NCBI GenBank assembly: GCA_035252155.1
Contig: DATFDL010000224.1
Location: 2,984-66,983 of the forward strand
Source of the DNA: Pirellulales bacterium
GTDB taxonomy: Bacteria; Planctomycetota; Planctomycetia; Pirellulales; JAICIG01
DNA length: 64,000 bases
Direction of reading: 5' to 3'
Shown here: one piece after another, positions 6,177 through 51,100 of the stretch
How the letters are laid out: each line of letters starts with the position of its first letter
How positions within the stretch are numbered: position 1 is the first letter of the stretch
Position numbers and translations under genes: made by a program
The notes under the pieces: model-generated
Seen by the model: only the letters and a program-made list of their open reading frames with translations
Database searches by the model: none
Told to the model about the DNA's origin: nothing

Positions 6177-7457
6177 ATGCGCTGCGCAGAATTCAAGAGC
6201 CCTCGACGACTGGCGCGAGTCGCCGGCTTAGGGGCCGTTGCCCTATTCTTGGTTGGAATGGTGACGGCTGGCGCCGCGGAACCTGCGACGGACGTAACTG
6301 ACCTCTCGTGGGTCGACCAGCGCATCGCAGACTGGGAGCTGACTGACGAAGAGCGCCGCTTTGATGAGATCGGCTGGGCCGGCGGCCTGGACGAGGCCGC
6401 GCGCCTGGCCCGCCAGTGGCAACGGCCATTGTTCGTATTCACTTACTCCGGATCAGCGACCGAGGCCAATGCCATCGCCTTGCGGCGTTGTTGAGGCGGG
6501 GCCAACAGCATGAGAGCGGGTCCGCTCTCCAACGAAACCGTCATCTCGTTGCTCAATAGCAGTTTCGTGCCGGTCTACGTCGACGGGGTCTACCTCTCGC
6601 ACAACGAGGCTGCCTCCGCCGACGAAAAAGCGGCCTATCGGCGGCTGTTTGAAGAATTCTCGCGATTCAATCGAGAGGCCGAAGCCAAGGGCGGGGCGCA
6701 GACGTCGATCGGCAGTGTGCATGCCTACATCCTCACCGCCGACGGCCGGGCCTTCGATTCGTTGCACGTCGCCGAAGCCAAAGCGAGTCGCGTGATCGAG
6801 ATGCTGCGCCGCGCGATCGAGCAACTGAAGCCCGCCGCCGGTGGACCGGCGACCAAGCCGGCGGCCCAGTCGTCGGCGCCGCAAGCGCCGCCTGGCTCGT
6901 TGGTTCTGCACCTGACTGCCCGCTATCTGCATGTGAAGCCCGGCGAGAAAGAGGCGCCCGAGGAATTTGTGCCCGTCCACACGAACGCCTTGGGGACCGA
7001 CCGCGCCGGCAACTGGTCGGACCTGCCCTCGGAGAACTGGATTGTGCTTGAGCCTGCCGAGGGGCAAAAGTTCGTGCCGGCCGGCGACCTGACCGTTGGA
7101 CGGTCGTGGGAAATCGACCGCGAGCTGGCGACCAAGATTTACTTGCGGTTCTACCCGGACACCGAGTCCAACGACTTTGCCGACAACCGGATCGACCGCC
7201 AGTCGCTCCGGGCGAAAGTCGTTTCCGTGGCCGACGGCCTGGCTCGGGTGCAGTTGGAGGGCGAGTTGAAGATGAAGCACCCCTTTTATCCGCACCGCGA
7301 AGACGACCACTTCGTCGACGCGACAGTGGCGGGTTATCTCGATTATGAAATCGGTCCGCGTCGGATTCGTTCGCTCCGGCTCGTGACCGACGAAGCCACC
7401 TACGGCAGTCCGCGGCAAACGCAGCATATTGGCGTCGCACTGCGGTCGATGCCGTGA
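6177..7457 (+). CDS. secreted thioredoxin-fold protein with an in-frame TGA at 6492-6494 (candidate selenoprotein, otherwise a nonsense pseudogene)
   Basis: Track ORFs 6069-6494 and 6510-7457 are in the same frame, separated only by TGA plus 5 sense codons. The signal peptide starts at the ATG at 6177. The pattern LFVFTYSG...RRC-TGA-GG...ETVISLLNSSFVPVYVDG spans the stop and resembles Thioredoxin_7/DUF255-type domains. Confidence 0.6.
6512..6529 (+). promoter_or_regulatory. SECIS-like stem-loop downstream of the in-frame TGA
   Basis: GAGAGCG-GGTC-CGCTCTC forms a perfect 7-bp stem with a GGUC loop starting 17 nt after the TGA. A possible lower stem pairs CGTTG (6486-6490) with CAACG (6530-6534). 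Confidence 0.5.
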
Positions 7458-7533: not shown

Positions 7534-9054
7534 CTAATGCGATGCTTCGCCTTCGACAAACCGAGAACGCGATTTTGCCGGGTCTGCCGTCGTCTCGATG
7601 TCGAACAAGGCACGCACGCCGAACAGCGAGACCAACTGCGATAGTTTGGGCTGTGGAAAATTGATCTTCACGTGCAGAAACCGCTTGTCGCCGTTCTGCT
7701 CCACGGCCCACACCAGCCGGTGCTCGGCAACATCACCGCCCATTTTTAGTTCGCGCAACTGCACGGACGATACATTCCGCTCGCCCAGAGGCACCACCGC
7801 CAGCACCCGTAGTGCCTGCGAATTCTCGTCCCACATCGCCAGCGGATCGGAACATTCGAGGAAGAGCTGCCGAGGATCGGTCGAGACGGCCACGCGCAGG
7901 CCATCTTCGACCGTTTCGATCTTCGTCTCCGTCGGTATCTCCTCGGGCCGCGCGGCGAAGGGCGTGAATATGGGATCGCCGAACACGATCCCGCCGGTCG
8001 CCATGTCGAGCAGAAGATCGCGAATCAGATCGCGCAGCGGTTGAATCGGCTGCCCGTCGGCTTCATGGATGATTTTCAGCCGGTCGAACCCCGCGGCCAA
8101 ACAAGCCAAAACGACGCGGTTGTAATCGCGGCGGCGGACCTCGCCGACACTTAGCCCCTCGGCCGCCAGCGCGGCAAAGTCGCCAAACAGTTCCGGGCCG
8201 GCAGGTCTCGGGCAGGTATACGCCACATAGGCCGCGGCCCCCGTCTTGAGCATTGCCAGGCAAAAGCTCTCGTCGCGGGGCACCGTGCGTTGCCGCTTGA
8301 CGCCCGCCTGCCAGTCTTCTTCAAACCAGCGGTTCGTCACTCCGGTCAGGCAGGCGATGTTCAGCACCACCGCGCCGTCGAATCGTAAACCATCAAGGTT
8401 TTTCCAGGTTGGTCCGCCCACAACCTCGCGCGGATAGCCGTGCCCGGCGAAGAGCACCAGCGACTTTCCCGCAAGCTGCGGCATGAGGTTTTGGATGAAT
8501 TGAGCATCGCGGCCCTCGGTGAAATTCTCTCCGCCGGCAATCTGCCCCCAAAGCTGCGGCAGCGTCGCCTTTCGCAGTGGGAACTGCTGTTGGCTGACGG
8601 CCGATCGCGTGACGGCCTTTTCGCCCACGCCCGCCACGGCGATTGTCGGCTCGCGGCGGTTTTGCTCGGCATCAAAACCACGCCGGGCCAGAGACAACGC
8701 AGTCTCGGGCGTATCGCCGGTGATGAATCCATAAGCAAAATCGACAAACGGATCGTCGTCGACTTCGGTGGACAATTTCAGAAAGCTCCGAGCAAGATTG
8801 ACATCCAAATCGTCGGGCCGCACGACGATGGCCACGTATTGCGGCTGCTTAGCGCGGAGTGTCTCCAGCAAATCCGAGAAATGCTGTACATCGCTTGAAA
8901 CAACTTCACCGCCGCGCAGCTTTGCCAAGCATTCCGCGGCGGCGTAATACGGGTCTTTGGGGCCGACCAGATCGACGACGATGTAGTCGCTGCCAACAGC
9001 GACCGAAGTGGCCGCAATCAACAAGACGAACAGCGCGCGTGGGAAATGAAGCAT
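7534..9054 (-). CDS. hypothetical secreted protein (possible clan-CD-like His/Cys dyad)
   Basis: 506-aa ORF with a signal peptide. LVLFAGHGYP ... LNIACLTG is reminiscent of caspase/gingipain-fold H-G and A-C motifs. This assignment is weak. Confidence 0.6.
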   Translation of the reverse strand: MLHFPRALFVLLIAATSVAVGSDYIVVDLVGPKDPYYAAAECLAKLRGGEVVSSDVQHFSDLLETLRAKQPQYVAIVVRPDDLDVNLARSFLKLSTEVDDDPFVDFAYGFITGDTPETALSLARRGFDAEQNRREPTIAVAGVGEKAVTRSAVSQQQFPLRKATLPQLWGQIAGGENFTEGRDAQFIQNLMPQLAGKSLVLFAGHGYPREVVGGPTWKNLDGLRFDGAVVLNIACLTGVTNRWFEEDWQAGVKRQRTVPRDESFCLAMLKTGAAAYVAYTCPRPAGPELFGDFAALAAEGLSVGEVRRRDYNRVVLACLAAGFDRLKIIHEADGQPIQPLRDLIRDLLLDMATGGIVFGDPIFTPFAARPEEIPTETKIETVEDGLRVAVSTDPRQLFLECSDPLAMWDENSQALRVLAVVPLGERNVSSVQLRELKMGGDVAEHRLVWAVEQNGDKRFLHVKINFPQPKLSQLVSLFGVRALFDIETTADPAKSRSRFVEGEASH

Positions 9055-9350
9055 CAGTTAACCATCAAAGCTCGCTCGGACGATTCCGGCATTTTAGCCG
9101 CTTGGTTCGCCAATGGAACCGAGATGATCCCAAATTCGTCGTCATACGCGGCGGCGATGATCAGGAATTGCAAAGGAAGCGTGAACAATAGGCCCACGTA
9201 GCAAAAATAAACGCCCATCATGCCAATGATCATCGCCAGAAAGCTCACCAGCAGCCTTTCCAGCAGCCGTACTCGCGTGGCGCGCCAGCTTTCGCCGATC
9301 GCCGTGGCAAAATCGTAGCCGCGATCGGCCACCAAGGGCATGACGAACAT
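9054..9350 (-). CDS. small membrane protein, possibly a remnant
   Basis: 98-aa ORF with two hydrophobic helices. A stop codon lies 12 codons upstream of the ATG, so it cannot be extended. Confidence 0.35.
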   Translation of the reverse strand: MFVMPLVADRGYDFATAIGESWRATRVRLLERLLVSFLAMIIGMMGVYFCYVGLLFTLPLQFLIIAAAYDDEFGIISVPLANQAAKMPESSERALMVN

Positions 9351-16891: not shown

Positions 16892-16964
16892 GGCTCGTTC
16901 GTCTAGCGGCTCAGGATGCCGGCCCTTCAAGCCGGAGGCCGGGGTTCGACTCCCCGACGAGCTA
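16892..16964 (+). tRNA. tRNA-Glu(TTC)-like
   Basis: Acceptor GGCTCGT/ACGAGCT (G1-U72), Glu-type D arm GTCTAGCGGCTCAGGA, anticodon stem CCGGC/GCCGG with loop CCTTCAA (C rather than U at 33), T arm CGGGG-TTCGACT-CCCCG. Confidence 0.7.
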
Positions 16965-16973
16965 CTTGAAAAG

Positions 16974-17046
16974 CAGAACGTAGGAGAGCGGCCACTCCGC
17001 CTGGTCGGGGGCCAGGAGACCGCCGGTTCGAGTCCGGCCGTTCTGA
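16974..17046 (+). tRNA. tRNA-Pro(GGG)-like
   Basis: C1-G72 and A73, D stem GGAG/CTCC, anticodon stem CCTGG/CCAGG with loop TCGGGGG (C at 33), T arm GCCGG-TTCGAGT-CCGGC. Confidence 0.7.
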
Positions 17047-17065
17047 CAGACTGAACGAAGAATCA

Positions 17066-17137
17066 CGGGATGTAGGGTAGCGGTGGCCCGCGTGCCTTGG
17101 GAGCACGAGCAAGTGGGTTCAACTCCCACCGTCCCGA
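17066..17137 (+). tRNA. tRNA-Pro(TGG)
   Basis: Canonical cloverleaf: CGGGATG/CGTCCCG, anticodon stem CGTGC/GCACG with loop CTTGGGA, T arm GTGGG-TTCAACT-CCCAC, A73. Confidence 0.9.
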
Positions 17138-17148
17138 CTCGTAATCAT

Positions 17149-17237
17149 AGTCCGGTGTTGTAACGGAAGCATGGCGATCTGATACGTCGCCGGCGACCAC
17201 GCTGCGCGCGGTGCCCGTTCGACTCCACCCCGGACTA
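17149..17237 (+). tRNA. tRNA-Ile(GAT)-like carrying a 21-nt hairpin insert
   Basis: Acceptor AGTCCGG/CCGGACT, anticodon arm GCGAT-CTGATAC-GTCGC, A73. The T stem GGCG..G/CCACC closes only if 17196-17216 (ACCACGCTGCGCGCGGTGCCC) is looped out. Confidence 0.5.
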
Positions 17238-17309
17238 CTTCGCCAAAACAAGGAGAACCACAATGCGGCAGCGACAGCGGCTCAAACGCATACGCCAGAC
17301 CGACAACAT

Positions 17310-17380
17310 GGGGTCGTGGCGTAACGGTAGCGCATCCGCCTTTTAAGCGGAAGGGTGAGGGTTCGACTCCGGCTGGGTGC
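17310..17380 (+). tRNA. tRNA-Lys(TTT)-like, probably defective
   Basis: The 5' two-thirds fold well (GGGGTCG, D stem GCG/CGC, anticodon arm TCCGC-CTTTTAA-GCGGA) and a GGTTCGACTCC T-loop is present. I could not find a 3' strand that closes the T stem or acceptor stem. Confidence 0.35.
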
Positions 17381-17388
17381 TTATAGAG

Positions 17389-17484
17389 CGGCGTGTGGGA
17401 AAGCCTGGAATTCCGCGTGCTTCGGGAGCACGAAACCGACCAACGCTGCGCGTCGGTGCCCGGGTTCAAATCCGGCCACGCCGA
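17389..17484 (+). tRNA. tRNA-Pro(CGG)-like carrying a 23-25 nt hairpin insert
   Basis: Acceptor CGGCGTG/CACGCCG (C1-G72, A73), D stem GGAA/TTCC, anticodon arm CGTGC-TTCGGGA-GCACG (same stem as the TGG isoacceptor). Insert at 17439-17461 lies just 5' of GGTTCAAATCC. Confidence 0.5.
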
Positions 17485-17490
17485 CTCGAT

Positions 17491-17565
17491 TGCGGTGGGA
17501 CCCGTGCTGGTACGGGTAGGCGGCTGTTAACCGCCCTGACGCAGGTTCGATTCCTGGCGCCGCAG
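17491..17565 (+). tRNA. tRNA-Asn(GTT)
   Basis: U1-A72 and G73, D stem ACCC/GGGT, anticodon arm GGCGG-CTGTTAA-CCGCC, T arm GCAGG-TTCGATT-CCTGG. Confidence 0.85.
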
Positions 17566-17579
17566 CTCACGATGAAAAC

Positions 17580-17664
17580 GGAACGGCAAGCCAACGGGCG
17601 ATGGCAGCCGCCTCGAAAGCGGTCGAGCAGCAATGCCTTGGGAGTTCGACTCTCCCTCCTTCCG
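17580..17664 (+). tRNA. tRNA-Ser(CGA), class II
   Basis: Acceptor GGAACGG/TCCTTCC (one C-C mismatch), anticodon arm GCCGC-CTCGAAA-GCGGT, long variable arm, T arm GGGAG-TTCGACT-CTCCC, G73. Confidence 0.8.
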
Positions 17665-17671
17665 CCTTCAC

Positions 17672-17763
17672 GTGCCCTTGGCCGAGCGGCAAAGGCTCCA
17701 GCCTTCCAAGCTGGCGCGACCAACGCTGCGCGTCGGTGCCCGGTTCGACTCTCGCAGGGCACT
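17672..17763 (+). tRNA. tRNA-Gly(TCC)-like carrying a 23-nt hairpin insert
   Basis: Acceptor GTGCCCT/AGGGCAC, U73, anticodon arm CCAGC-CTTCCAA-GCTGG. The T stem GCG..GG/CTCGC closes only if 17719-17741 is looped out. Confidence 0.5.
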
Positions 17764-17773
17764 CTTTCAATGA

Positions 17774-17844
17774 TCGGGGATCGGCTAACGGTAGGCTCCC
17801 TGGCTTTGAACCAGGAGATGGAGGTTCAAGTCCTTCTCCCCGAA
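17774..17844 (+). tRNA. tRNA-Gln(TTG)
   Basis: Acceptor TCGGGGA/TCCCCGA (U1-A72), anticodon arm CCTGG-CTTTGAA-CCAGG, T arm GGAGG-TTCAAGT-CCTTC. Confidence 0.8.
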
Positions 17845-17880
17845 CTTCGGTCGCGATGGCCGTGTCCCAAGAATACATGA

Positions 17881-17974
17881 TCCGGGGCAGTTGCTGCTGG
17901 TAGTAACGCCTGGCTCCGGGCACCGTGCGCAGCATGGTCGCAGGAAGCCATTGGTTCGATTCCAACCCCCGGAA
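17881..17974 (+). tRNA. tRNA-Arg(CCG)-like carrying the hairpin insert in inverted orientation
   Basis: Acceptor TCCGGGG/CCCCGGA, D stem GTTG/TAAC, T arm ATTGG-TTCGATT-CCAAC. The anticodon stem 5' strand CCTGG and loop CTCCGGG are followed by a ~19-nt hairpin (the 17918-17938 element) before the 3' strand GCAGG. Confidence 0.45.
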
Positions 17975-17986
17975 CTTTAGACATAC

Positions 17987-18071
17987 GGAGGTCATCCGGC
18001 CGGATGAGGAGCCTGTCTTGAAAACAGGTGGCGGCGCAAGTCGCTTGTGAGTTCGAGTCTCACGGCCTCCG
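17987..18071 (+). tRNA. tRNA-Ser(TGA), class II
   Basis: Acceptor GGAGGTC/GGCCTCC, anticodon arm CCTGT-CTTGAAA-ACAGG, long variable arm, T arm GTGAG-TTCGAGT-CTCAC, G73. Confidence 0.8.
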
Positions 18072-18085
18072 CCTCTGGTGAAACA

Positions 18086-18158
18086 CGTCCCGTGGCCTAG
18101 TAGCGAAGGCAGCGCCTCCACACGGCGAAGATCGACAGTGCGAGTCTGTCCGGGACTA
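18086..18158 (+). tRNA. tRNA-Val(CAC)-like
   Basis: D stem GCC/GGC, anticodon stem CGCC/GGCG with loop TCCACAC (C at 33), T arm GACAG-TGCGAGT-CTGTC (G at 55), C1-U72 mismatch, A73. Confidence 0.55.
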
Positions 18159-18159
18159 C

Positions 18160-18234
18160 GTCCTCGTGGAGCAGCCAGGAGTGCTCGCCTGCTTGTCAGG
18201 CAGGAGGTCGCGGGTTCAAGTCCCGCCGGGGACG
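18160..18234 (+). tRNA. tRNA-Asp(GTC)
   Basis: Canonical: GTCCTCG/CGGGGAC, D stem GAGC/GCTC, anticodon arm CCTGC-TTGTCAG-GCAGG, T arm GCGGG-TTCAAGT-CCCGC, G73. Confidence 0.9.
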
Positions 18235-18248
18235 CTTTCATAAAGCAC

Positions 18249-18323
18249 GGCGCGGTACGCAAACAGGCAAAGCGGCCAAGCTCAAACCTTGGTGACCTGT
18301 CGGTTCGATTCCGACCTGCGCCA
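18249..18323 (+). tRNA. tRNA with anticodon CAA (Leu) on a short-variable-loop (class I) body
   Basis: Acceptor GGCGCGG/CTGCGCC, D stem CGC/GCG, anticodon arm CCAAG-CTCAAAC-CTTGG, ~6-nt variable loop, T arm GTCGG-TTCGATT-CCGAC, A73. Confidence 0.6.
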
Positions 18324-18459
18324 CTCGCACAACGAGCAACATGCGTCGGTTGAGCATTCGGATACAAAATCAGCGTCTATTGAGTGAACAGTGCTGGCCG
18401 GCGTTAACCGTGCGACGGCAATACGATCGAGTCCTGAACCCCGAACCTTGAACCCTCCC

Positions 18460-19050
18460 ATGGCCAAGATGCTCAACAGGCCGGCGCTGGTGCTCAACCG
18501 CAACTGGCAGCCGGTGAACGTCGCCACCGTCGCTCGCGCGCTGGTCATGCTCTTCAATGAGGCGGCCCGCGTCGTCGATCCGGCTGACTACCAGCTCTAC
18601 ACCTGGGCTGACTGGTCAGGGCTGGCTCCGCGCGACGGCGAGCCGTTCATCCAGGCGGTGAGCATGCGGTTGCGCGTACCGGAGGTGATCGTGCTGGCGG
18701 GCTACGATCGGCTGCCCGAAGCGGCCGTGGCGTTCAGCCGGCGGAACATCTTCAAGCGCGACCACTACACTTGCCAGTATTGCGGCGTACAGCCGGGCGT
18801 CGAGGAGCTGTCGATCGACCACGTAATTCCGCGGTCGCAAGGCGGCATCTCGACCTGGGACAACTGCGTGCTGGCGTGCGTGGAGTGCAACAAGCGCAAG
18901 GCCAACCGCACGCCGGCTGAGGCGGGCATGAAGCTGCGCAAGCAACCTTGCCGCCCGCAGTGGAAGCCGCTCTATGCTGCGCACAGCGTGCGTGTCGAGA
19001 GCTGGTCGAAGTTTGTCAGCGAGGCTTATTGGAGCGTCGAACTCCGCTGA
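18460..19050 (+). CDS. HNH endonuclease
   Basis: DHYTCQYCGVQPGVEELSIDHVIPRSQGGISTWDNCVLACVECNKRKANRTP is an HNH motif with two CxxC pairs. The likely start is the ATG at 18460 (MAKMLNRPALVLNRNWQPVN). Confidence 0.9.
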   Translation: MAKMLNRPALVLNRNWQPVNVATVARALVMLFNEAARVVDPADYQLYTWADWSGLAPRDGEPFIQAVSMRLRVPEVIVLAGYDRLPEAAVAFSRRNIFKRDHYTCQYCGVQPGVEELSIDHVIPRSQGGISTWDNCVLACVECNKRKANRTPAEAGMKLRKQPCRPQWKPLYAAHSVRVESWSKFVSEAYWSVELR

Positions 19051-19066
19051 GCCGCAGTTGAAGCAA

Positions 19067-19096
19067 GCCGATCCAAGCGGGGCAGCTTGGATCGGC
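19067..19096 (+). terminator. 12-bp perfect hairpin after the HNH gene
   Basis: GCCGATCCAAGC-GGGGCA-GCTTGGATCGGC. No U-run follows, so it could be a processing or terminator element. Confidence 0.4.
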
Positions 19097-19101
19097 CTTA
19101 C

Positions 19102-19171
19102 AGGATCGTGCTCCTGGGAGAGCCAGCGGTCTCCAAAGCCGCTTTACGGGGTTCGACTCCTCGCGATCCTG
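19102..19171 (+). tRNA. tRNA-Trp(CCA)-like
   Basis: Acceptor AGGATCG/CGATCCT, anticodon arm GCGGT-CTCCAAA-GCCGC, T arm CGGGG-TTCGACT-CCTCG, G73. The D arm is unusually small (CTC-CTGG-GAG). Confidence 0.65.
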
Positions 19172-19174
19172 CTT

Positions 19175-19245
19175 GTCCTGCGAGTGTGATGGAAGCACGG
19201 CAATCTTCGGAACTGTAAGACGGGGTCCGATTCCTCGGCGGGGTG
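19175..19245 (+). tRNA. tRNA-Arg(TCG)-like
   Basis: Acceptor GTCCTGC/GCGGGGT (three G-U pairs), D stem GTGT/GCAC, anticodon arm GCAAT-CTTCGGA-ACTGT (one mismatch), T arm CGGGG-TCCGATT-CCTCG (C at 55). Confidence 0.55.
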
Positions 19246-19264
19246 CTGCTGGTCATAACAACTT

Positions 19265-19337
19265 GTCCTCGGAGTGTGCCGGATTCGCACTCGAGCCCGC
19301 GAAGCTCGTAGACCAGGTTCGATTCCTGGCGAGGACG
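19265..19337 (+). tRNA. tRNA-Arg(GCG)-like
   Basis: Acceptor GTCCTCG/CGAGGAC, D stem GTGT/GCAC, anticodon stem CGAGC/GCTCG with loop CCGCGAA (C at 33), T arm CCAGG-TTCGATT-CCTGG. Confidence 0.7.
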
Positions 19338-19349
19338 CTTGAACAACCC

Positions 19350-19422
19350 GACGCTGGAGCCAGACGGCACGGCAACCGCCTGCAGAGCGGTTTCAAGCGG
19401 GTTCGACTCCCGCCGGCGTTTC
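19350..19422 (+). tRNA. tRNA-Cys(GCA)
   Basis: Acceptor GACGCTG/CGGCGTT, D stem GCC/GGC, anticodon arm ACCGC-CTGCAGA-GCGGT, T arm GCGGG-TTCGACT-CCCGC, U73. Confidence 0.85.
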
Positions 19423-30324: not shown

Positions 30325-31362
30325 ATGTACCTGCTTTACGTTGACGCCTCCGGGACTCCTGAACCGCAGGACAGCAATAGCCGACATTATGTCCTGGTTG
30401 GTCTTTGCGTTCACGAAGGAACGTGGTTCGCGCTCGACAAGCGGTTGAACGGGTTAAAAGCGGCCTATTGCCCGCCTGGACGGGACTTTGAGCTCCACGC
30501 CGCTCAGTTCGCAGGCTCTATTCGAGAGCAGGATGAGATACCGGCGTTCGCTGGCATGTCGTGGACGGATCGGCGTGCCCGCGTCACGGCGCTTCAGCAG
30601 GCGAAAATCGCCGCTGCCCCTACCGCGCCCGAGAGGCGAAACCGAGCCAAGAAATACAAGCGCACGGAGCCGTTCATCCATTTGACGCGCCAAGAACGCT
30701 CGCAACTTCTCGAAGATGCGCTTGACCTGGTAGGGGCACACAGGGGAATCAGCTTGTTTGGAGAAGCCATCCGCAAAGCTCATCCGGCAGTGACGTCGGG
30801 CAACGTCGACCCTGTTCACCAAGCCTTCGAGCAAGTCGTTTCGCGGTTCGATTCGTTTCTGAAGCGGCTGGACGACTGGAAGCACCAAAAAAGTCCGCGT
30901 CGATTGATCGACAATGGTCTGCTGGTTCTCGATCAGGACTACACGACCGAAGCGACTATTCTCAGCCAATTTCGCGACTATCGGAGAAAGGGTCATCCGT
31001 GGGGGCGAATGAGGCACGTCATCGACGTACCTTTTTTCGCATCCAGCGAACGAGTTTGCGGGCTTCAACTTGTCGATATCTGCGCCTAGGCGTTACGTCG
31101 GTACCTTGACACCAATGCCGTGAGCGGCAGCCATGAAGAGCGGAATTTTCAGCGGATTTACCACCGATTCGATCGGGACAATCTTGGCAGGTTGCACGGA
31201 TTGAGACACTACACCCCTCCCGGCACGTGCGACTGTCTTGTCTGTCGAGAACGCGGTCACGCAACTCAAGCGGCCGCCTCGCCGCCTGTCGTTTTGCCAA
31301 CAGAGCCGCAGCAGTCGGGACGGGACGATTCGAATCCTGCTGTCAACGAACCGTCGAGCTAA
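30325..31362 (+). pseudogene. DUF3800 domain protein interrupted by an in-frame TAG at 31087-31089
   Basis: MYLLYVDASGTP is a DUF3800 N-terminus. ORFs 30325-31089 and 31120-31362 share a frame. The stop falls in GLQLVDICA-TAG-ALRRY, where the family normally has LQ.AD..AYA, so this is a TAC/TAT to TAG change. Confidence 0.65.
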
Positions 31363-36198: not shown

Positions 36199-36300
36199 AG
36201 AAACGGACGAAAAATAACTTCGGCATACAGATTCCTCTCCCTCCGGGAGAGGTTAGGTGAGGGCCGACATAATTGCCGACGTTACTTTTTCGTCCGCTCC
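36199..36300. repeat. ~100-nt palindromic REP/MITE-like element
   Basis: Outer arms AACGGACGAAAAATAACTTCGGCA / TGCCGACGTTACTTTTTCGTCCGC enclose a CCTCTCCC-TCCG-GGAGAGG hairpin plus GGTGAGGGC. Related copies lie at 38101-38130, 51026-51054 and 51070-51100. Confidence 0.7.
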
Positions 36301-36860: not shown

Positions 36861-37262
36861 ATGGTTCATTCCGGCCGCGAGCGAGATGTGCCCCACCGCC
36901 GCCGCGGTCGAGGTAAGGGTAATCCAGTGCCAAAACTCGCTGAAAGCAACCTGCCAACCTTGATTCAGCGCATCACGTCGCGGATCTTGAAGCGGTTTCA
37001 CCCGGACAAGGTGATCCTATTTGGTTCTCAGGCGCGCGGAAACACAACCGCGGACAGCGACTTGGATTTGCTGGTGGTGATGGATTTTGAGGGGTCGAAG
37101 CTCGACAAGATGGTCGAGGTACGCGAGGTGCTGAGGGGGATCAGGATCCCGACGGACATTCTCATCACGACGCCCGACGACTTCGCCTGGCGCAAGGACG
37201 TGGTGGGCACCATTGAATGGCCGGCTTTCCATGAAGGCCAAGTCCTTTATGCCCGCGCCTAG
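36861..37262 (+). CDS. nucleotidyltransferase (MNT-type antitoxin)
   Basis: KVILFGSQARGNTTADSDLDLLVV is the NTase GS...D.D motif. The true start may be the GTG at 36927. Confidence 0.75.
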   Translation: MVHSGRERDVPHRRRGRGKGNPVPKLAESNLPTLIQRITSRILKRFHPDKVILFGSQARGNTTADSDLDLLVVMDFEGSKLDKMVEVREVLRGIRIPTDILITTPDDFAWRKDVVGTIEWPAFHEGQVLYARA

Positions 37263-37673
37263 CAATCCGCAGTTAGCCGTTCTGCGTCAATGGGTCGAGA
37301 AGGCCGAACACGACCTGACGGCCGCCAGACAGATTCAAAAGCTCGGCAAGGCCGCGCCGACGGATACGATTTGTTTTCACGCGCAGCAATGCGTCGAGAA
37401 GTATCTTAAGGCCGCTCTGGTCAACCTAGGGATTCCCTTCGCAAAGACCCACGACATCGAAGTGCTGATGAAGCTGATTCCGCCTAAGCACCGGCCAGCC
37501 ATGACGCCGACGGAGCAGAATTATTCACCAGTTATGCGGTCGTGGTTCGATATCCGCAAGCCGGACTGGCGATTCCTCTGCGCGAATCGCGCAGGGCGGT
37601 GGCCATCGCGCGGCGCATTCGCCGCGAAGTGCGCCGCTCGTTGCCCAGGTCGGCGGTACGGCGCACCAAGTGA
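37249..37673 (+). pseudogene. HEPN domain protein (toxin partner of MNT) with a frameshift near 37500-37515
   Basis: The N-terminal half is in the 37249 frame (LRQWVEKAEHDLTAARQI...HAQQCVEKYLKA). The C-terminal half AELFTSYAVVVRYPQAGLAIPLRESRRAVAIARRIRREV, with an HEPN-like YAV..RYP motif, is in another frame ending at TGA 37671-37673. The 277-aa track ORF is readthrough into repeats. Confidence 0.6.
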
Positions 37674-37884
37674 GCACGATTCTTCCGATCAGTCGGCCCC
37701 TAGTTCTCGAGCCTCCAGCGCCCAGTCCCCAATCCCAAGCCTCCGTCCCCAGTCCCTCCGCTCCACGCCCCACGCCTCCCGCCCCACGGCTACCAATCCA
37801 GCCTGGGCCAGTTGCTGCACAGCGCGGTTTACCTCGGCGGCTTTTGGCTTCCCCGACCTCCGAATCGGGACCGCGTCGCCTCGT

Positions 37885-37936
37885 CATTTTGCATTTTACT
37901 TTTGCATTTTGCATTTCGGTCTTTGCAAATTTGCAC
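37885..37936. repeat. AT-rich cluster of five TTTGCA hexamers
   Basis: CATTTTGCATTTTACTTTTGCATTTTGCATTTCGGTCTTTGCAAATTTGCAC. Confidence 0.8.
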
Positions 37937-38201
37937 TCACCGTGCGCGGCGAAGCGCGGAAAAACCACTTACGGCGATCTACGAGAGAGGCCAGAGGTCG
38001 GAGGTCGGAGACCGGGGCAGGAGAAAAAAGCCAACGGGCTAACTAAAGGGTGCGCTGCCACCCCCTGACCCCCGACCTCTGAATCCCCACCCATTTCCTC
38101 GGCCCTCACCCAGCCTCTCCCGGAGGGGGCTTTGCACCGCAACCTCGCCAAAAACGGAGGTTGTTGGGCAGCCGCCAAGGTTGTTGTGCAGTGACCTCGG
38201 C

Positions 38202-38495
38202 TCAATTCTCGTCGCCCCCATTCAAGGGCAGCACAAACTCAACACCGATTTCCATTTGATTCTGGAGCGCCAGCAGACCATTGGCGAACTGGCGAAGGTC
38301 TTTATCGACGTTGGGTCGCTGTCGTAGATCCTTGCCACAAATCGGGCAGATCAACGCTCCATTGACCAACCCAGAGACCGGCACTTCGGCGTAGGCATCG
38401 CCACATTGCATGCACTTGATTCGCACTCGCTCCAATTCCTTGGCTGGAAACCGAATCAGCTTTTCCATGACCGTTCCCTTGGTTTTTCGCTTCAT
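38202..38495 (-). CDS. small zinc-ribbon protein
   Basis: CMQCG ... CPICG double CxxC motif. The start could be the internal MEKLIRF. Confidence 0.45.
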   Translation of the reverse strand: MKRKTKGTVMEKLIRFPAKELERVRIKCMQCGDAYAEVPVSGLVNGALICPICGKDLRQRPNVDKDLRQFANGLLALQNQMEIGVEFVLPLNGGDEN

Positions 38496-38502
38496 TCGCC
38501 CC

Positions 38503-38871
38503 CTAGTTACTCTGCTGGCTCAATTGCTCCCGCAGATCGTCTTCGTCTTCGGCATTGCCGTGGAACATCATCCCCGGCTCGCTTATGCCGATCTTGTGAG
38601 CCAAGTAGCCCATCCTGAAAAACTGATCTGCAAAATCCGGGTTCTCTGGCTCGTCGGCATGCTCAACCTCTCGGCAGAACCAAAGCCGATCACGGTCATC
38701 TTTGAGCAAAAAGCAACCTTCCTCTTGAACTTCGGCTTCTGAGCCAGCCCTGAAACAGCAACGGTAAAGCGGCATGTCATTTCTCCGCTGGAGAATGGTT
38801 GTGGTTGGCTCGCCGTTGATGGATCGAACCTCGACGGCGAAGTATCGCTTGATGATAGGGCTGGTCTGCAT
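38503..38871 (-). CDS. hypothetical acidic protein
   Basis: 122-aa ORF located 30 nt downstream of acr3, with island-like composition. No family recognised. Confidence 0.4.
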   Translation of the reverse strand: MQTSPIIKRYFAVEVRSINGEPTTTILQRRNDMPLYRCCFRAGSEAEVQEEGCFLLKDDRDRLWFCREVEHADEPENPDFADQFFRMGYLAHKIGISEPGMMFHGNAEDEDDLREQLSQQSN

Positions 38872-38901
38872 GATTTAGAAGAGTGTGCGGCAGCCGTTTT
38901 T

Positions 38902-39981
38902 TCATTCGGCAGATGGCACAGCGGATCGACCGACCGACCAGCCAAAATACCGCCGCTGGAAGTAGAGCGAAACGCTTACCAATCCAATCAAGACCGGCAC
39001 TTCCACCAGTGGACCAATCACTGCGGCAAACGCTTCGCCCGAATTGATCCCAAACACGGCGACAGCAACGGCGATAGCTAACTCAAAGTTGTTGCTGGCT
39101 GCCGTGAAAGAGACCGTCGCCGATTTGGAGTAGTCAGCACCGATCAACCGACCCATCCAAAAGCTGACCAAGAACATCACGACAAAGTAGATCAGCAACG
39201 GCACTGCGATGCGGATCACGTCGAAGGGAATCTGCACGATCAAGCTTCCCTTCAAGCTGAACATGACGAGGATTGTGAACAAGAGCGAGACCAAAGTAAT
39301 GGGGCTGATTGCAGGGATGAAGCGGCGATCGTACCATTCCTTGCCTTTCAGCCTGAGCAGCACGAAGCGAGAGATGATGCCTGCCAAGAAGGGGATGCCC
39401 AGGTAGATGAGAACGCTTTGAGCGATTTCAGCCATGCTGACTTGCACGACGCTGCCTGAAACGCCGAACAACGGCGGCAGTACGGTGATAAAGAACCAAG
39501 CGTAGGCGCTGTAAAAGAGGACTTGGAAAACGCTGTTGAACGCCACCAGCCCCGCAGCGTATTCGCTGTCCCCCTTGGCTAGCTCGTTCCAGACAATGAC
39601 CATCGCAATGCACCGAGCCAAGCCAATCATTATCAGCCCGACCATGTAGTCGGGCTGCTCTTGGAGGAACAGAAGCGCCAAACCGAACATGAGCACTGGA
39701 CCGATGAGCCAGTTCTGGACGAGCGATAACCCGAGAATCTTCCAGTCCCGAAACACCTCGCCCATTTCCTCGTAGCGGACTTTCGCCAGCGGCGGGTACA
39801 TCATCAGAATCAAGCCGATGGCAATAAGCACGTTCGTCGTGCCGATCTGAAACTGGTTGATGATCGTCTCGACGCTCGGAATAAAATGCCCGATAGCAAC
39901 TCCCGCAGCCATCGCCAAAAATATCCAGAGCGTCAGATACCGATCTAAGAACGCCAAGCGTTTTGTAGTTCCGTTACTCAT
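38902..39981 (-). CDS. acr3: ACR3 family arsenite efflux transporter
   Basis: [25 protein letters not shown]...[13 protein letters not shown] plus about 10 TM helices. Confidence 0.9.
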
Positions 39982-40411
39982 TTGTTTTCCTTTCTAGGTT
40001 GTCGGGCAGATGCTCGACGAATGTTTTGATTTCATCCCGGATTCGGCGGTAATGGTTCAGAGCTTCTTCATCCGTTTTGGCGTCTCTCGCTAGCCGTGGC
40101 GGGTCATCGAAGCCGACGTGAACGATTCGAGCGCCGGGCAAGACAGGGCAGCTTTCGTGGGCGTGATCGCAAACGGTTACGACATAATCGAAGGTAATGT
40201 CTGCTAGTTCATCCACGTGCTTTGAGTGCTGGTTTGAGATGTCTATGCCGGACTCAGCCATAACTTGGATGGCTCGCTCGTTCATGCCATGAGGATCGAC
40301 ACCCGCCGAGTACGCCTCGATGCAATCAGCCTTGAGTGCCTTTGCCCAACCCTCAGCCATCTGGCTTCGGCAGGAATTTCCGGTGCATAAAAAGAGGATT
40401 CTTGTTTTCAT
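39974..40411 (-). CDS. arsC: arsenate reductase, LMW-PTPase (thioredoxin-coupled) type
   Basis: [18 protein letters not shown]-loop (CX5R). Overlaps the acr3 start by 8 nt. Confidence 0.9.
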
Positions 40412-40428
40412 ATTTGCTTAGGCGAATG

Positions 40429-40441
40429 TTCGTTTGACGAA
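40429..40441. promoter_or_regulatory. palindrome TTCGTTTGACGAA upstream of arsC (ArsR-operator-like)
   Basis: Inverted half-sites TTCGT/ACGAA lie 18 nt upstream of the arsC ATG. Same motif as 40825-40840. Confidence 0.35.
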
Positions 40442-40467
40442 TAGAATGTCCTTGGTCGCAGTAGGGT

Positions 40468-40824
40468 TTAGTCGCAGCAACCAGTTTTGCCGCAGAGCTT
40501 CAGTTTCTCGGCGTCTCGACTAAACTGAGGCAAGTCCTCATCGCAGGCTGCCAAACAATCGAGCAGCTTGGATCGCAGAGGCGACGGATTGCTTGCCAAG
40601 CGGTAATACGCCCAGTGCCCCTCTTTGCGTGCCTGCACCAGACCCGCTCGTCGCAGGTAAGCCAAATGGCGTGAGACCTTCGGTTGTGGCACATTCAGGA
40701 CAGCGACCAGATCGCAAACACAAACCTCGCCGCTTCGCAGCAGATTGAGGATGCGCAACCGAGTGCGGTCAGCCATCGCTCTAAAGACCAACTCGACGGG
40801 TCGCTGTTTTGCCTTCGTTTTCAT
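40468..40824 (-). CDS. arsR: ArsR/SmtB family transcriptional repressor
   Basis: FRAMADRTRLRILNLLRSGEVCVCDLVAVLNVPQPKVSRHLAYLRRAGLV (HTH with a CVC metal site) and a C-terminal CGKTGCC. Confidence 0.9.
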   Translation of the reverse strand: MKTKAKQRPVELVFRAMADRTRLRILNLLRSGEVCVCDLVAVLNVPQPKVSRHLAYLRRAGLVQARKEGHWAYYRLASNPSPLRSKLLDCLAACDEDLPQFSRDAEKLKLCGKTGCCD

Positions 40825-40840
40825 ATTCGTTTAGACGAAT
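40825..40840. promoter_or_regulatory. palindrome ATTCGTTTAGACGAAT abutting the arsR start (ArsR-operator-like)
   Basis: Inverted half-sites ATTCGT/ACGAAT sit immediately upstream of the arsR ATG. Confidence 0.35.
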
Positions 40841-40863
40841 GTTAGCAGAACCGACAGAACCCG

Positions 40864-42129
40864 TCAACCATCTGACGAAAATGTTTGCGGAGCTTCAGAC
40901 TCCTTCTCGTGAAAGAATTCGGGCTCGATGCCCAATTCATACATTTCCTGTATCAAGACACAGATGTTGTGGCATAGCAGCTTGCACAGAACCTCGTTCA
41001 CCATCGCCACGTCGGTCTTGCTCCGAATGTGGTCACGGAACTTGGTCTTAATCATCATGAAGGTGCTCTCAACATTGCTCCGCTGATGGTAATGCTTAAG
41101 AAACTCCTCTCGCTTAAACTTAAAGTAATGATACATCTTTGCCCATAGACCACCGCCTTTTCCCGTGTGAATCGCCTTGAAGCAGATGTAGGGCACTGCT
41201 CCATAAGCGGCGACCGTGTTCGTGTTCTTAATGCTGGCATAGCCCTTGTCTGCGCAAACTTCCTCCATCGTAAAGTTCTCGGCGGTTGTTTTAACCAGAT
41301 CGGGCAACAACTTGGTGTCGCTGGCATCCTTGTCCCGGATCTCGACCGCCGTTACAACATTTGTTTTGACGCCGCACATGATATGGACCTTCACCCACTC
41401 ATGCTGGCGGCGCTCGACCCCGTTCCGGTGATCGAGCCACTTAATGAACCTTGAAGTCGTGAAGCCAGTGCTGTCGGCAGCGAACACCGTCTCGACTTCC
41501 TTAAGTGGCAGGCTCGCCATGACGATCAAATCCCGCAGAACTGGCGTGATTTCAGGGTTTTGCAGATAGTTAAAGATCGAGTTGAAGTGGGGCACTCGGC
41601 TGATATAGCCTTTCTCTTTGGCTTCCCGCAGGTCGGTCATAAAGCGCCGACCACTGACCGTGCTGTAAATCTTAAATGTTGCAGCGAAGATGGCATCACC
41701 GAGCGGCAAGAACGGTCGCCCGCCCTTGGGCTGCTCCCGCTTGGGTTCATCAATCGTCCCGCATAGATCCGCCAGAAGTTGTTGGAACTTGGCTTTCTCG
41801 TTGGTTTGGGCAGCATTATATGCCCTCCAAACTTGCGGATAGGTCTTGCGTTCCTTGATCTCGACCGAGTTCGTCACGATCTCGCTCCCATCCGGGCTTT
41901 TTTCCCGCTTGATGAGGAACTCGACGGCGAAGATGTGCTTGCACTTACCGCCCCGAGTCTCGTGGTCTGGACAGGTGCAATGTGGGTTGCTGGGGTCGGG
42001 GCAGACTGTATACCTGCCCTTGCCCGATTGCGACGGGACGAGGTAAACGCCGCCCTTCTGCTCAATCCTGCACATCGCAGCGATGCGGAGTCCCCGTTGT
42101 TCCCGAACGTCCAGATTGGCTGTTTCCAT
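40864..42129 (-). CDS. DDE transposase (IS5/IS4-like) with N-terminal SWIM zinc finger
   Basis: CTCPDHETRGGKCKHIFA (SWIM). FAADSTGF, CADKGY and YHQRSNVESTFMMIKTKF match DDE_Tnp_1-type motifs. I could not identify terminal inverted repeats for a discrete IS. Confidence 0.8.
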   Translation of the reverse strand: METANLDVREQRGLRIAAMCRIEQKGGVYLVPSQSGKGRYTVCPDPSNPHCTCPDHETRGGKCKHIFAVEFLIKREKSPDGSEIVTNSVEIKERKTYPQVWRAYNAAQTNEKAKFQQLLADLCGTIDEPKREQPKGGRPFLPLGDAIFAATFKIYSTVSGRRFMTDLREAKEKGYISRVPHFNSIFNYLQNPEITPVLRDLIVMASLPLKEVETVFAADSTGFTTSRFIKWLDHRNGVERRQHEWVKVHIMCGVKTNVVTAVEIRDKDASDTKLLPDLVKTTAENFTMEEVCADKGYASIKNTNTVAAYGAVPYICFKAIHTGKGGGLWAKMYHYFKFKREEFLKHYHQRSNVESTFMMIKTKFRDHIRSKTDVAMVNEVLCKLLCHNICVLIQEMYELGIEPEFFHEKESEAPQTFSSDG

Positions 42130-42251
42130 TGGGTTGAACCTCTTACCTTGTAGTATATACCTACAAGTAATATACGGCTCGGTTTACCCAGTGTAAAGCA
42201 CTTCGACGGTTTTACTGGACGGAATATGCCGCCAGTAATATACTGTGAGGT

Positions 42252-42404
42252 ATGGCGAAAAAGATCCAACTCTGGGGCTGGTCGTGCCTCCGCTGTGGGC
42301 ATACATGGCTGCCTCGTAACAAGGACGAACAGCCGAGGGTCTGCCCAAAATGCAAGAGTCCCTACTGGGATCGCCCCAGAGAGTCGGAGAAGCGCAAAGA
42401 TTGA
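42252..42404 (+). CDS. 50-aa zinc-ribbon protein
   Basis: MAKKIQLWGWSCLRCGHTWLPRNKDEQPRVCPKCKSPYWDRPRESEKRKD. It is below the track length cut-off and has two CxxC pairs. Confidence 0.45.
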   Translation: MAKKIQLWGWSCLRCGHTWLPRNKDEQPRVCPKCKSPYWDRPRESEKRKD

Positions 42405-42520
42405 TGGCGCAAACCTTTGGCTATCAATGGCTTGCGACAGGCACAAAAATTCCGGTGCGGCTCGTTGACTTTGTCGAGCCAGTCGTCTAAGTTAACCCAT
42501 AGTTGATTGCTCAAAAGACG

Positions 42521-42593
42521 TTGCGGGGGAGGGAATTGAACCCTCATTCGACGCTTTAAAGGCGTTCGTCCTACCCAATTAGACGACCCCGCA
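42521..42593 (-). tRNA. tRNA with anticodon TTA (reads UAA; ochre-suppressor type)
   Basis: Reverse strand: TGCGGGG TC GTC-TAATTGGGTAG-GAC G AACGC-CTTTAAA-GCGTC GAAT GAGGG-TTCAATT-CCCTC CCCCGCA A. It has a perfect 7-bp acceptor (U1-A72), a perfect T arm, U33, A36-A37-A38 and A73. Confidence 0.75.
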
Positions 42594-42740
42594 AGCCTTT
42601 TGAAAAAACAGCAACCAGAGCCGGGGAAGCGCACAGCGACCCCGCAGGCAAAATGCCTGACTTTGCCAGAGCGCTCCGGTGGCTAAGGCAAAGGCTCGGT
42701 GGGATTTCCAAGGTCCGTCTACCGAGCCTTTTTTATGCGC

Positions 42741-43148
42741 TCATTTTCGTTTTGAGTAGATCGTCGCTCTCCTCCCTTTGCCGAGTTCGACCATAGTAAT
42801 CGTGCCCTCGCTGGACAGCTTCTTCAAGTGCCCCGATAGCGCCGGTTGATCGACTTCGCCGCCGTGCTCCTCGATGAACTTCTGCACCTCCCTGATGGTG
42901 AAGTGCTCGTCGCTGGGGAGCTTGGCGATGGCCTGCATGACCATATCCCGCCAGCCACGTATCACGCCTTGGGCACTGGCGTGCCCGTTAATCATTTGTG
43001 GCGGGGGCATGTTCTTGTTGAACAGCGCCCAAGTAGTATCGAGAGCCTCGATCTTACGCTGGCTTTCTTCTTCGATGACTTGTCGGGCCTTCAAATAATC
43101 CTGCCGGGTCATATTGGCATGATAGGACTTATGCCGACGAGCCGTCAA
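42741..43148 (-). CDS. hypothetical protein with a possible C-terminal winged-helix
   Basis: 135-aa ORF with island-like composition. The C-terminus LSGHLKKLSSEGTITMVELGKGRRATIYSK is wHTH-like. Confidence 0.45.
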   Translation of the reverse strand: MTARRHKSYHANMTRQDYLKARQVIEEESQRKIEALDTTWALFNKNMPPPQMINGHASAQGVIRGWRDMVMQAIAKLPSDEHFTIREVQKFIEEHGGEVDQPALSGHLKKLSSEGTITMVELGKGRRATIYSKRK

Positions 43149-43677
43149 GTAGCCCCAGAAGAATTTTCTTGGGAGGTAGTTGTGGGGCAGAATACTAGCT
43201 TATTGGGCAGGACGAGGTTGCTGTGCAAAGCCCCCGGAGGGAGAGGAGACGAGGCGAAGGGGCGACACGGCGACACGGCGAGGGGGCGACAAGGCGATGC
43301 TCCCTGACTGCCGAATCCTGAATGCCGAATCCTTGAACCAGCGCTTGCGTAAGCGGTGATTGATATTTTGCAAGGTCGCCCTAAACGTGCATGGTGCAGC
43401 AGCTTGCGAGTGCAGAGCAGCCGCGGGTGGCCCTGTTCTTCGCAAGCAAATCGATGCGGCCGGGCACGATGAACGAAATCGGAGTGACAGCCGCAACGCA
43501 ATCGCAGTGCGATTGGCTCATCGCTTGACCGGCCGGTGGTCGCGGCATCTATTAACGCTTGTTGACGCGCCGATCATGCGATCGTGACTAAGTGCCTAAC
43601 CGACAACCGGCAGGCAGTCCTGACGCCCGCACCAGAACGCCGGTTCTCGAATAGGCTCGAAGTATGAGGAGCTCAAA

Positions 43678-51025: not shown

Positions 51026-51100
51026 GCCCTCACCTGGCCTCTCCCAGAGGGAGAAGCAAAGATAGATCAGCCCTCACTTGGCCTTTCCCAGCGGGAGAGG
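51026..51100. repeat. two tandem REP-like hairpin elements
   Basis: CCCTCACCTGGCCTCTCCCAGAGGGAGA and CCCTCACTTGGCCTTTCCCAGCGGGAGAGG. The flank AACGGACGAAAAAT (51007-51020) also occurs at 36202-36215. Confidence 0.7.

Follow-up and report, generated by a model that had tools for sequence, protein, structure and literature searches.

The 64,000-nt stretch of Pirellulales contig DATFDL010000224.1 analyzed here (the window) contains, on its minus strand, a tRNA gene whose anticodon, UUA, is complementary to the stop codon UAA. The gene lies in a low-GC "island" that proves to be a discrete transposon of 5,105 bp (38128 to 43232), bracketed by 34-nt inverted repeats in a repeat search and with a GC content of 53.6% within the element versus 62.2% outside. 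The initial annotation had placed the tRNA in an AT-richer "ars/transposase island"; the base composition and the mobile nature of this DNA are borne out, while the island is a single unit transposon in which the ars genes are recent cargo, found in this copy only. Read along the minus strand, the gene order is the 123-aa protein, a hairpin, the tRNA, an antisense 50-aa gene, the transposase, arsR, arsC, the ACR3-type gene, a 90-aa gene, and the 88-aa CxxC protein. The genes adjoining the transposon belong to PSCyt/PSD1/DUF1501 sets, typical of Planctomycetes.

The tRNA gene

42521 to 42593 (−): tRNA, anticodon UUA; called by ARAGORN and Rfam, with UUA or CUA tRNAs in the same module slot of four diverged relatives

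ARAGORN calls the gene at 42520 to 42593 (−) with anticodon tta and labels it "tRNA-Stop." Rfam model RF00005 matches end to end at 42521 to 42593 (−) with 59.9 bits (gathering threshold, 29; E value, 1.8e-10), which is among the top two tRNA scores in the window. The tRNA reads UGCGGGG UC GUCU AAUUGGGUA GGAC G AACGC CUUUAAA GCGUC GAAU GAGGG UUCAAUU CCCUC CCCCGCA A. It is 73 nt long. The 7-bp acceptor stem and the T arm are perfect, and the anticodon loop is a canonical 7-nt one, CUUUAAA, with U33, the anticodon U34-U35-A36, and A37-A38. The universal tRNA nucleotides are all found (U8, A14, G18-G19, U33, G53-U54-U55-C56, A58, and C61), and the sole irregular pair is A27.C43 at the top of the anticodon stem. 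The 73-nt cloverleaf given in the initial annotation agrees with ARAGORN, Rfam, and the read sequence, ARAGORN confirms its anticodon, and its class I body with a Glu/Gln-like D arm and U1-A72 is equally supported. An alternative fold with a sense anticodon at positions 34 to 36, raised there as an objection, is found by neither ARAGORN nor Rfam, and the minimum-free-energy fold retains the identical 7-nt loop. A second objection, that the gene is a decayed fragment used as an integration site, fails as well, with the tRNA lying within a transposon bounded by inverted repeats and its stems showing compensatory changes. The tRNA gene of the window is real, and its anticodon reads a stop codon. 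The tRNA array of the window, with 16 members, is 23 kb off, and the solitary tRNA of the element is not a tRNA array unit.

Conservation in diverged transposons

Public sequence from other samples includes two contigs that match the window at 99.96% (L001) and 100% (L002) identity and carry the same tRNA; they are too close to it to inform on conservation. Relatives of the transposase number in the thousands, and identity reaches ~76% in the nearest. Among the elements compared here (73 to 76% identity overall), the transposases of L023 and L024 are 73% and that of L025 is 76% identical to the enzyme of the window. L023/L024 and L025 show the order 123- to 126-aa protein, tRNA "Stop (tta)," transposase, and ~86-aa CxxC homologue, and their 123- to 126-aa proteins share 39 to 43% identity with the protein of the window. 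Three further branches are as follows:

L026 to L030 (branch P0244): UUA tRNA at the module position
L033 (branch P0249): CUA tRNA, amber-reading, at the module position
L032 (branch P0255, the most distant): no tRNA detected by ARAGORN, Rfam, or the family covariance model

Four of the five diverged relatives thus have a tRNA in the module slot, with UUA in three and CUA in one, and the most distant (L032) has none. A sense anticodon at this locus, for which the initial annotation had suggested a search, occurs in none of the four.

Five distinct tRNA sequences were segmented by hand, and each was checked against the raw DNA; pairs were counted on this segmentation, the covariance-model alignment having misplaced the register of L025 and L033. 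Standard pairs occupy 100 of the 105 stem cells (95%), and 9 of the 21 pairs show double compensatory changes, namely, acceptor pairs 3-70, 4-69, 6-67, and 7-66 and all five pairs of the anticodon stem. RNAalifold finds compensatory changes in 7 of 19 pairs on a plain alignment. Across the five sequences, no change affects the D arm (UCGUCUAA...GGAC), T stem, or U35-A36, the T arm as a whole is nearly invariant, and all five score above the Rfam gathering threshold, at 40.9 to 59.9 bits. Deviating cells amount to 1 of 15 in the anticodon versus 19 of 50 at other unpaired, nonuniversal positions (one-sided Fisher P of about 0.02, the relatedness of the sequences being ignored). The single anticodon change, U34 to C in L033, gives another stop anticodon. 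These comparisons indicate that the tRNA is most likely under selection in the transposon family.

Organization of the transposon

The other features of the element in the window are listed by position.

38119 to 38127: target-site duplication, left copy, 9 bp, CCCGGAGGG; identical 9 bp abut both transposon ends
38128 to 38147 (+): terminal inverted repeat, left, GGCTTTGCACCGCAACCTCG; 19 of 20 positions match the reverse complement of 43213 to 43232
38202 to 38468 (−): CxxC...CxxC protein, 88 aa, last core gene; 37 to 41% identity to the gene following the transposase in L023, L025, and L027
38503 to 38775 (−): 90-aa hypothetical gene, cargo; also called in the near-identical contig L001
38902 to 39981 (−): ACR3-type arsenite efflux gene, cargo; Pfam SBF, 6.9e-60
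39974 to 40411 (−): arsC, low-molecular-weight phosphatase type, cargo; Pfam LMWPc, 1.4e-18; stop TAA
40468 to 40824 (−): arsR repressor gene, cargo; Pfam HTH_5, 5e-18; stop TAA
40864 to 42129 (−): DDE transposase, 421 aa, distantly IS5-like; Pfam DDE_Tnp_1, 3.4e-20; intact open reading frame (ORF), stop TGA
42252 to 42404 (+): zinc-ribbon gene, 50 aa, opposite strand, optional module member; MAKK.QLWG..C.RC.H.W.PR...P.VCPKCKSPYW conserved in L026 and L032
42692 to 42729 (−): stem-loop between the 123-aa gene and the tRNA; aggctcggt...accgagcct
42741 to 43112 (−): 123-aa winged-helix DNA-binding protein, first core gene; AlphaFold and Foldseek
43213 to 43232 (−): terminal inverted repeat, right, CGAGGTTGCTGTGCAAAGCC; one mismatch to the reverse complement of the left end
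43233 to 43241: target-site duplication, right copy, CCCGGAGGG, 9 bp

The conserved core consists of the winged-helix protein, the tRNA, the DDE transposase, and the small CxxC protein, and the ends of the relatives share a GGCTTTGCAC core with those of the window. The cargo varies: the window carries the ars operon, L026 a GNAT acetyltransferase, and L023 an unknown protein of 415 aa. The ACR3-type gene is absent from L023 to L027, which carry other cargo. The 90-aa gene has no homologue among the relatives examined and no family match. The 88-aa CxxC protein, which has no match in Pfam or NCBIfam, shares 24 invariant columns with its homologues in L023, L025, and L027. The zinc-ribbon gene, whose product gives a weak FmdB-type zinc-ribbon match, keeps its position and orientation in L026 and L032 and is absent in L023 and L025. 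The best NCBIfam match of the transposase is an IS5-family equivalog model, at 109.6 bits and below the cutoff of 140.

The AlphaFold model of the 123-aa protein (predicted local distance difference test score, 85) contains a winged-helix domain, and its top Foldseek matches are the DNA-binding domains of Fur, ArsR, and PadR. Judged from this model, the protein would most simply be a regulator or an end-binding factor, with no evident link to the tRNA. Its family comprises 16 clusters among 5.8 billion proteins, and the named source organisms are all Planctomycete metagenome-assembled genomes (MAGs). Nothing related to the tRNA region, to the 123-aa protein, or to the transposase turned up in searches of plasmid, phage, and IMG/VR collections. 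The transposon family is so far known from Planctomycete metagenome sequences only. Every relative has an A-rich run and a GC hairpin between the stop of the 123-aa gene and the tRNA. A 10-nt copy of the first ten bases of the tRNA (TGCGGGGTCG) occurs at 42637 to 42646 (−), ~45 nt upstream of the tRNA, in an extra ~100 nt that the relatives lack.

Excision in silico of the element together with one copy of CCCGGAGGG restores a perfect palindrome, CCTCTCCCGGAGGGAGAGG. Palindromic repeats of the form CCTCTCCC-N3-GGGAGAGG, often beside GGTGAGGGC, are dispersed in the window (36233 to 36267, 38099 to 38127, 43233 to 43247, and 51038 to 51100). The insertion flank of L027 resembles the palindromic target of the window; insertion within one such repeat and the similar flank of L027 hint at a target preference. 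L024 is a 4,201-bp copy with a perfect 9-bp duplication, ATGATGATG, and L026 and L027, which come from different samples, are 100% identical exactly from the terminal repeat inward and differ in their flanks. The duplication and this shared interior with differing flanks show that the whole unit is mobile. The DUF1501 orthologues of L003 to L010 (80 to 92% identity) are not syntenic and stand in unrelated contexts with no tRNA, which is consistent with insertion and uninformative on the history of the tRNA.

Several smaller observations concern individual copies. L023 and L024 are identical from two bases before the left end of the transposon onward and have different left flanks; the target duplication is perfect in L024 and missing from L023, a pattern that points to a rearrangement mediated by the element beside a tRNA array. 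Directly downstream of the suppressor tRNA, L023 (5748 to 5800) and L026 (7500 to 7560) contain an incomplete, degenerate repeat of its D and anticodon arms, as in GTCTAACAATCAGAAC...TCTTTAAC, perhaps left over from a second tRNA in tandem. The GNAT cargo protein of L026 (9180 to 9665) ends in ...FWSEKKDAEVA, almost a duplicate of the transposase C terminus (7887 to 9119; ...FWNDKKEVEVA), which suggests that the 3' end of the transposase gene is where cargo is taken up by recombination. Just upstream of the tRNA-less module of L032, an RNA resembling the SymR antitoxin (6630 to 6707, minus strand) scores 44 bits, below the gathering threshold of 61. Within the cargo of the window, an identical 27-nt sequence with the imperfect palindrome ATTCG-N6-CGAAT occurs at 40404 to 40430 and 40817 to 40843, overlapping the start codons of arsC and arsR, and is probably an ArsR operator in two copies. 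A nucleotidyltransferase/HEPN pair of the toxin-antitoxin-like type (36861 to 38046, plus strand) adjoins the left end of the element.

Type and predicted charging of the tRNA

A metagenome scan with the exact D arm and a free anticodon returned tRNA-Gln(UUG) and tRNA-Glu(CUC) genes, among them a tRNA-Gln(UUG) in L022 with an identical D arm, the loop CUUUGAA, and an acceptor stem that differs in one pair. With the family covariance model, the top nonmembers are Gln(UUG) tRNAs, at 70.5 and 63.7 bits, compared with 29 for the tRNA-Glu of the array in the window. The closest sense relative of the transposon tRNA is a tRNA-Gln(UUG). The anticodon-free family pattern also matches phage-array tRNA-Glu with G1-C72 and, in IMG/VR, a few CUA suppressors of phages. 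The body agrees with that of tRNA-Gln in the U1-A72 pair, found in the window and in three of the four tRNA-bearing relatives; a Gln anticodon (U/C34-U35-G36) is not present, and since position 36 is A in all five sequences, the tRNA is not filed as tRNA-Gln and is best described from its sequence as Gln-derived or Gln-like.

The identity set of the glutamyl-tRNA synthetase (GluRS) of Escherichia coli includes an augmented D helix with U11-A24, U13-G22..A46, and no residue 47, and U1-A72 is the mark by which GatCAB knows its tRNA. Because this D helix (U11-A24, U13-G22, A46, and no residue 47) is invariant in the family and U1-A72 is kept in four of five members, charging by the Glu/Gln route is to be expected, and the tRNA most likely ends up carrying Gln.

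Stop codons of the host and the element

The 38 confident host ORFs of the window, all of normal length, end on TGA (20), TAG (11), or TAA (7), and host recoding was rejected from this standard stop usage. The genes of the element were likewise rejected as users of suppression: they have no internal stops and no conserved readthrough extensions, and in no member does the 123-aa, the 88-aa, the transposase, or a cargo gene contain an in-frame stop in need of a suppressor. All three stops are in normal use in the host, and the reading of arsC and arsR in the initial annotation as ending in TAA is correct. A transposase made as a readthrough extension of an upstream ORF was also rejected, the distance to the upstream stop varying from 15 to 201 nt and the upstream frame not being conserved. 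The in-frame stop upstream of the transposase start is TAA or TAG in all five cases, and the tRNA-less L032 shows the same pattern.

The transposase itself stops on TGA, which the tRNA does not read, in all four tRNA-bearing elements considered and on TAA in the tRNA-less L032. Tandem stops are found in 3 of 15 core genes, and the 123-aa gene directly upstream of the tRNA has a TAA stop in 4 of 5 elements. Together, these stops may be seen as weak signs of adaptation to a suppressor.

A candidate host target lies ~7 kb from the element. The DUF3800 gene at 30325 to 31359 (+) contains an in-frame TAG at 31087 to 31089 (codon 255), and the same TAG ends the gene in the second sample, L001. Homologues of 300 to 330 aa continue through this position, which aligns to a near-invariant Tyr (10 of 11 homologues) in the motif D-x-C-A-Y-A-x-R-R-Y; the initial annotation had rightly placed the amber codon at a usual Tyr position. 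The ~90 codons past the TAG are well conserved and include an invariant CxCxxC cluster. The gene is a candidate host beneficiary of UAG reading, the case being single and circumstantial.

Proposed function and alternative explanations

The explanation favored here, and considered moderately probable, is that the tRNA acts as a weak, selected, Gln-inserting suppressor of UAA and UAG carried by an IS5/IS903-like transposon. The mobile unit would comprise an inverted repeat, the 123-aa winged-helix gene, the hairpin, a UUA or CUA tRNA, the optional antisense zinc-ribbon gene, the DDE transposase, cargo, the ~88-aa CxxC gene, and the second inverted repeat, with a 9-bp duplication on insertion. 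Transcription of the tRNA would accompany or directly follow that of the winged-helix gene; RNase P and 3' maturation would free the molecule, which would receive its amino acid by the Glu/Gln route, with Gln as the end product, and read UAA, and UAG by wobble, at low efficiency. Low efficiency is expected because three of the five tRNAs have weak anticodon stems and because the host ends ~47% of its genes on UAA or UAG. Low-level suppression could then rescue nonsense alleles, whether of the host or of copies of the element, which would make loss of the transposon costly; retention through such rescue, with DUF3800 as a candidate example, is a guess. In the functional sense, which comprises expression, charging, and readthrough, the tRNA is a putative suppressor.

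A number of observations weigh against this explanation. Some copies may decode poorly with their imperfect stems: the A27.C43 mismatch of the window recurs in L023, L023 and L026 have a mismatch at 31-39, L025 has an aberrant T loop (C54 and C58), and L033 combines an 8-nt anticodon loop (or an A.C mismatch) with G1.G72. The discriminator base varies among the five tRNAs (A, U, G, A, and C), which is unusual for a tRNA family served by one synthetase, and the comparison comprises five independent sequences only. With about 47% of the host genes in the window stopping on TAA or TAG, strong suppression would be costly, and the core genes of the element, having neither internal TAA or TAG codons nor a conserved readthrough extension, provide no known obligatory target. 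The most distant relative, L032, has a module without a tRNA, so transposition as such does not require one. A Gln-type suppressor would moreover not restore the Tyr of DUF3800.

The main rival account, considered unlikely, takes the tRNA shape mainly for an RNA element in cis, a site for RNase P and RNase Z or a transcription insulator that splits the mRNAs of the regulator and the transposase and controls transposase expression, so that decoding is irrelevant. In its favor, in L023, L025, L026, and L033, the tRNA starts 40 to 47 nt past the stop of the 123-aa gene, right behind the hairpin, which leaves no room for a promoter of its own; it always lies between regulator and transposase in the same orientation, with a T-run behind it, and several copies have imperfect anticodon stems. 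RNase P, however, needs no set anticodon, no GluRS-type D helix, and no U1-A72, yet these are the most conserved parts of the molecule, and the sole anticodon change leads from one stop to another. The roles in processing in cis and in decoding are not exclusive. Less probable still is a neutral passenger, a Glu or Gln tRNA acquired from an array or a phage whose anticodon mutated and which now drifts without function. The same D and T arms recur in many phage and array tRNA-Glu and tRNA-Gln, sporadic UUA and CUA anticodons appear in unrelated arrays, L032 lacks the tRNA, and some copies carry defects. Against such drift, the tRNA has held its position while the neighboring protein fell to 39 to 43% identity, 9 of 21 pairs show compensatory changes, 95% of stem cells remain paired, and all copies stay above the Rfam threshold; a drifting pseudogene would not remain within stop anticodons.

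A recoded system, in which UAA or UAG is a sense codon of the host, of a phage, or of the element, is very improbable. It would fit the phage CUA suppressors with the same body signature in L036 and L043 and the phage-like look of the L023 and L026 regions, with their tRNA arrays, HNH nucleases, and many small ORFs. The stops of the window, in contrast, are of all three kinds, with genes of normal length and core genes free of in-frame stops, gene calls around L023 and L026 are dense under the standard code, and the 123-aa family has no relatives in the IMG/VR, phage, or plasmid collections; for the window, recoding is largely refuted. The least credible alternative makes the tRNA a chromosomal gene that served as an integration site, with the ars/transposase block inserted by its 3' end. 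The tRNA does lie close to the border of the low-GC block, its 3' end pointing to the ars genes. The tRNA and the 123-aa gene upstream of it are nevertheless inside the inverted repeats and the target duplication, so the tRNA cannot have been the target; neither an integrase nor a repeated copy of the tRNA 3' end is present, the tRNA travels with the transposase into unrelated flanks, and orthologous DUF1501 loci in related Pirellulales are without a tRNA. The boundaries of the element refute this explanation.

A more far-reaching form of the favored suppressor explanation, which is doubtful at present, would make the tRNA an integral and selected part of the transposon's strategy, low-level readthrough of UAA and UAG securing the persistence of the element. 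One route could be host dependence, with nonsense alleles such as the DUF3800 TAG piling up under the protection of the tRNA; another could be feedback on the transposon's own regulator gene, which in 4 of 5 tRNA-bearing copies ends in TAA directly upstream of the tRNA. If true, this would be a previously undescribed link of transposition with translation termination.

Relation to known suppressor tRNAs and transposons

The known settings of suppressor tRNAs are spontaneous suppressor alleles, sporadic suppressors, and phage recoding. The E. coli alleles supB (tRNA-Gln UUG to UUA, ochre) and supE (CUG to CUA, amber) are Gln-inserting suppressors. The transposon tRNA resembles them in its Gln-type body, from which one base change at position 36 leads to UUA, and in the additional occurrence of CUA in the family, so that reading of UAA and UAG or of UAG alone would be expected. 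In contrast to these chromosomal mutant alleles, it is a separate gene conserved across diverged transposons. Engineered transposons carrying supF exist as well (e.g., Tn5supF); they too have a nonsense-suppressor tRNA gene as payload and are artificial, compared with the natural and conserved unit described here.

According to two reports, phage suppressor tRNAs recode TAG to Gln in crAss-like and other gut phages (PMC10879173, PMC11210395). These are likewise Glx-type suppressors on mobile elements, and the CUA tRNAs of L036 and L043 share the D- and T-arm signature of the transposon tRNA. Such phages hold many in-frame stops, whereas the transposon and its host show no recoding; the carrier here is a DDE transposon of 4 to 5 kb, with UUA in place of CUA as the main anticodon. 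Sporadic suppressor tRNAs have been reported in 0.3% of the standard-code genomes analyzed (PMC13092985), and tRNA array units have been described (PMC4758250, PMC8421152). Both resemble the present case as stop-anticodon tRNAs in standard-code genomes, but they are isolated or placed in large arrays, unlike this solitary, transposase-tied, and family-conserved gene.

The left and right inverted repeats of IS903B (IRL and IRR) begin with GGCTTTG (GGCTTTGTTGAATAAATC...), and the element has a 9-bp direct repeat (PMC10569121). The present elements agree with IS903 and IS903B in their GGCTTTGCAC... ends, in having terminal inverted repeats (20 bp in the window), and in a 9-bp duplication, seen in the window and, perfect, in L024. 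Their transposase matches Pfam DDE_Tnp_1, and an IS5-family model is its best NCBIfam match, at a score below the model cutoff. They differ in the larger size of this transposase, 402 to 421 aa, and in three or four extra conserved genes, including the tRNA, together with variable cargo, which makes them unit transposons rather than simple insertion sequences.

In the literature searched, there is no report of a natural transposon-borne suppressor tRNA, and the association of a stop-reading Glx/Gln-type tRNA, as a core gene, with an IS5/IS903-like transposon family is new to that literature. A natural family that has kept its stop-reading tRNA over long divergence would add a third setting for suppressor tRNAs besides laboratory mutants and the rewriting of the code by phages, one in which a selfish element bears a tRNA that could read the stops of a standard-code host. 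The gene is also a caution to annotators that "tRNA-Sup/Stop" calls in MAGs are not always artifacts. If the tRNA is active, it would offer a tractable system for the tolerance of cells to chronic low-level readthrough, a test of host dependence created by mobile elements that mask nonsense mutations, and compact natural UAA/UAG suppressor scaffolds with diverged acceptor and anticodon stems for genetic-code engineering.

Other tRNAs in the window and in public sequences

The 16-tRNA array of the window (16892 to 19422, plus strand; ARAGORN) includes 11 members that reach the Rfam threshold. Some have odd lengths (Ile-gat, 90 nt; Pro-cgg, 97 nt; and Gly-tcc, 93 nt), and the tRNA-Glu has C33 and a G1.U72 pair. 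Among the members is a tRNA-Gln(UUG), and an HNH endonuclease gene (18391 to 19050) lies within the array. A prophage origin of the array was rejected, its neighbors being ordinary metabolic genes.

A genome-wide pattern scan gave six matches, of which only those in two Chloroflexi MAGs, L013 (1158 to 1230) and L016 (6631 to 6704), are true tRNAs; the pattern fixed the loop CTTTAAA and misses members with CTTTAAC or CTTTAGA, so that the negative result for Planctomycetes is weak. These two are unrelated Glx-type UUA tRNAs within tRNA clusters, one with G1.U72 and the other with U1-A72 and an encoded CCA. Viral contigs of IMG/VR have CUA tRNAs in L036 (2105 to 2180) and in tandem in L043 (7118 to 7189 and 7194 to 7267). 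The L036 gene and the first of the L043 pair show the D-arm and T-arm signature of the transposon tRNA, and the second of the pair has a different D and T arm.

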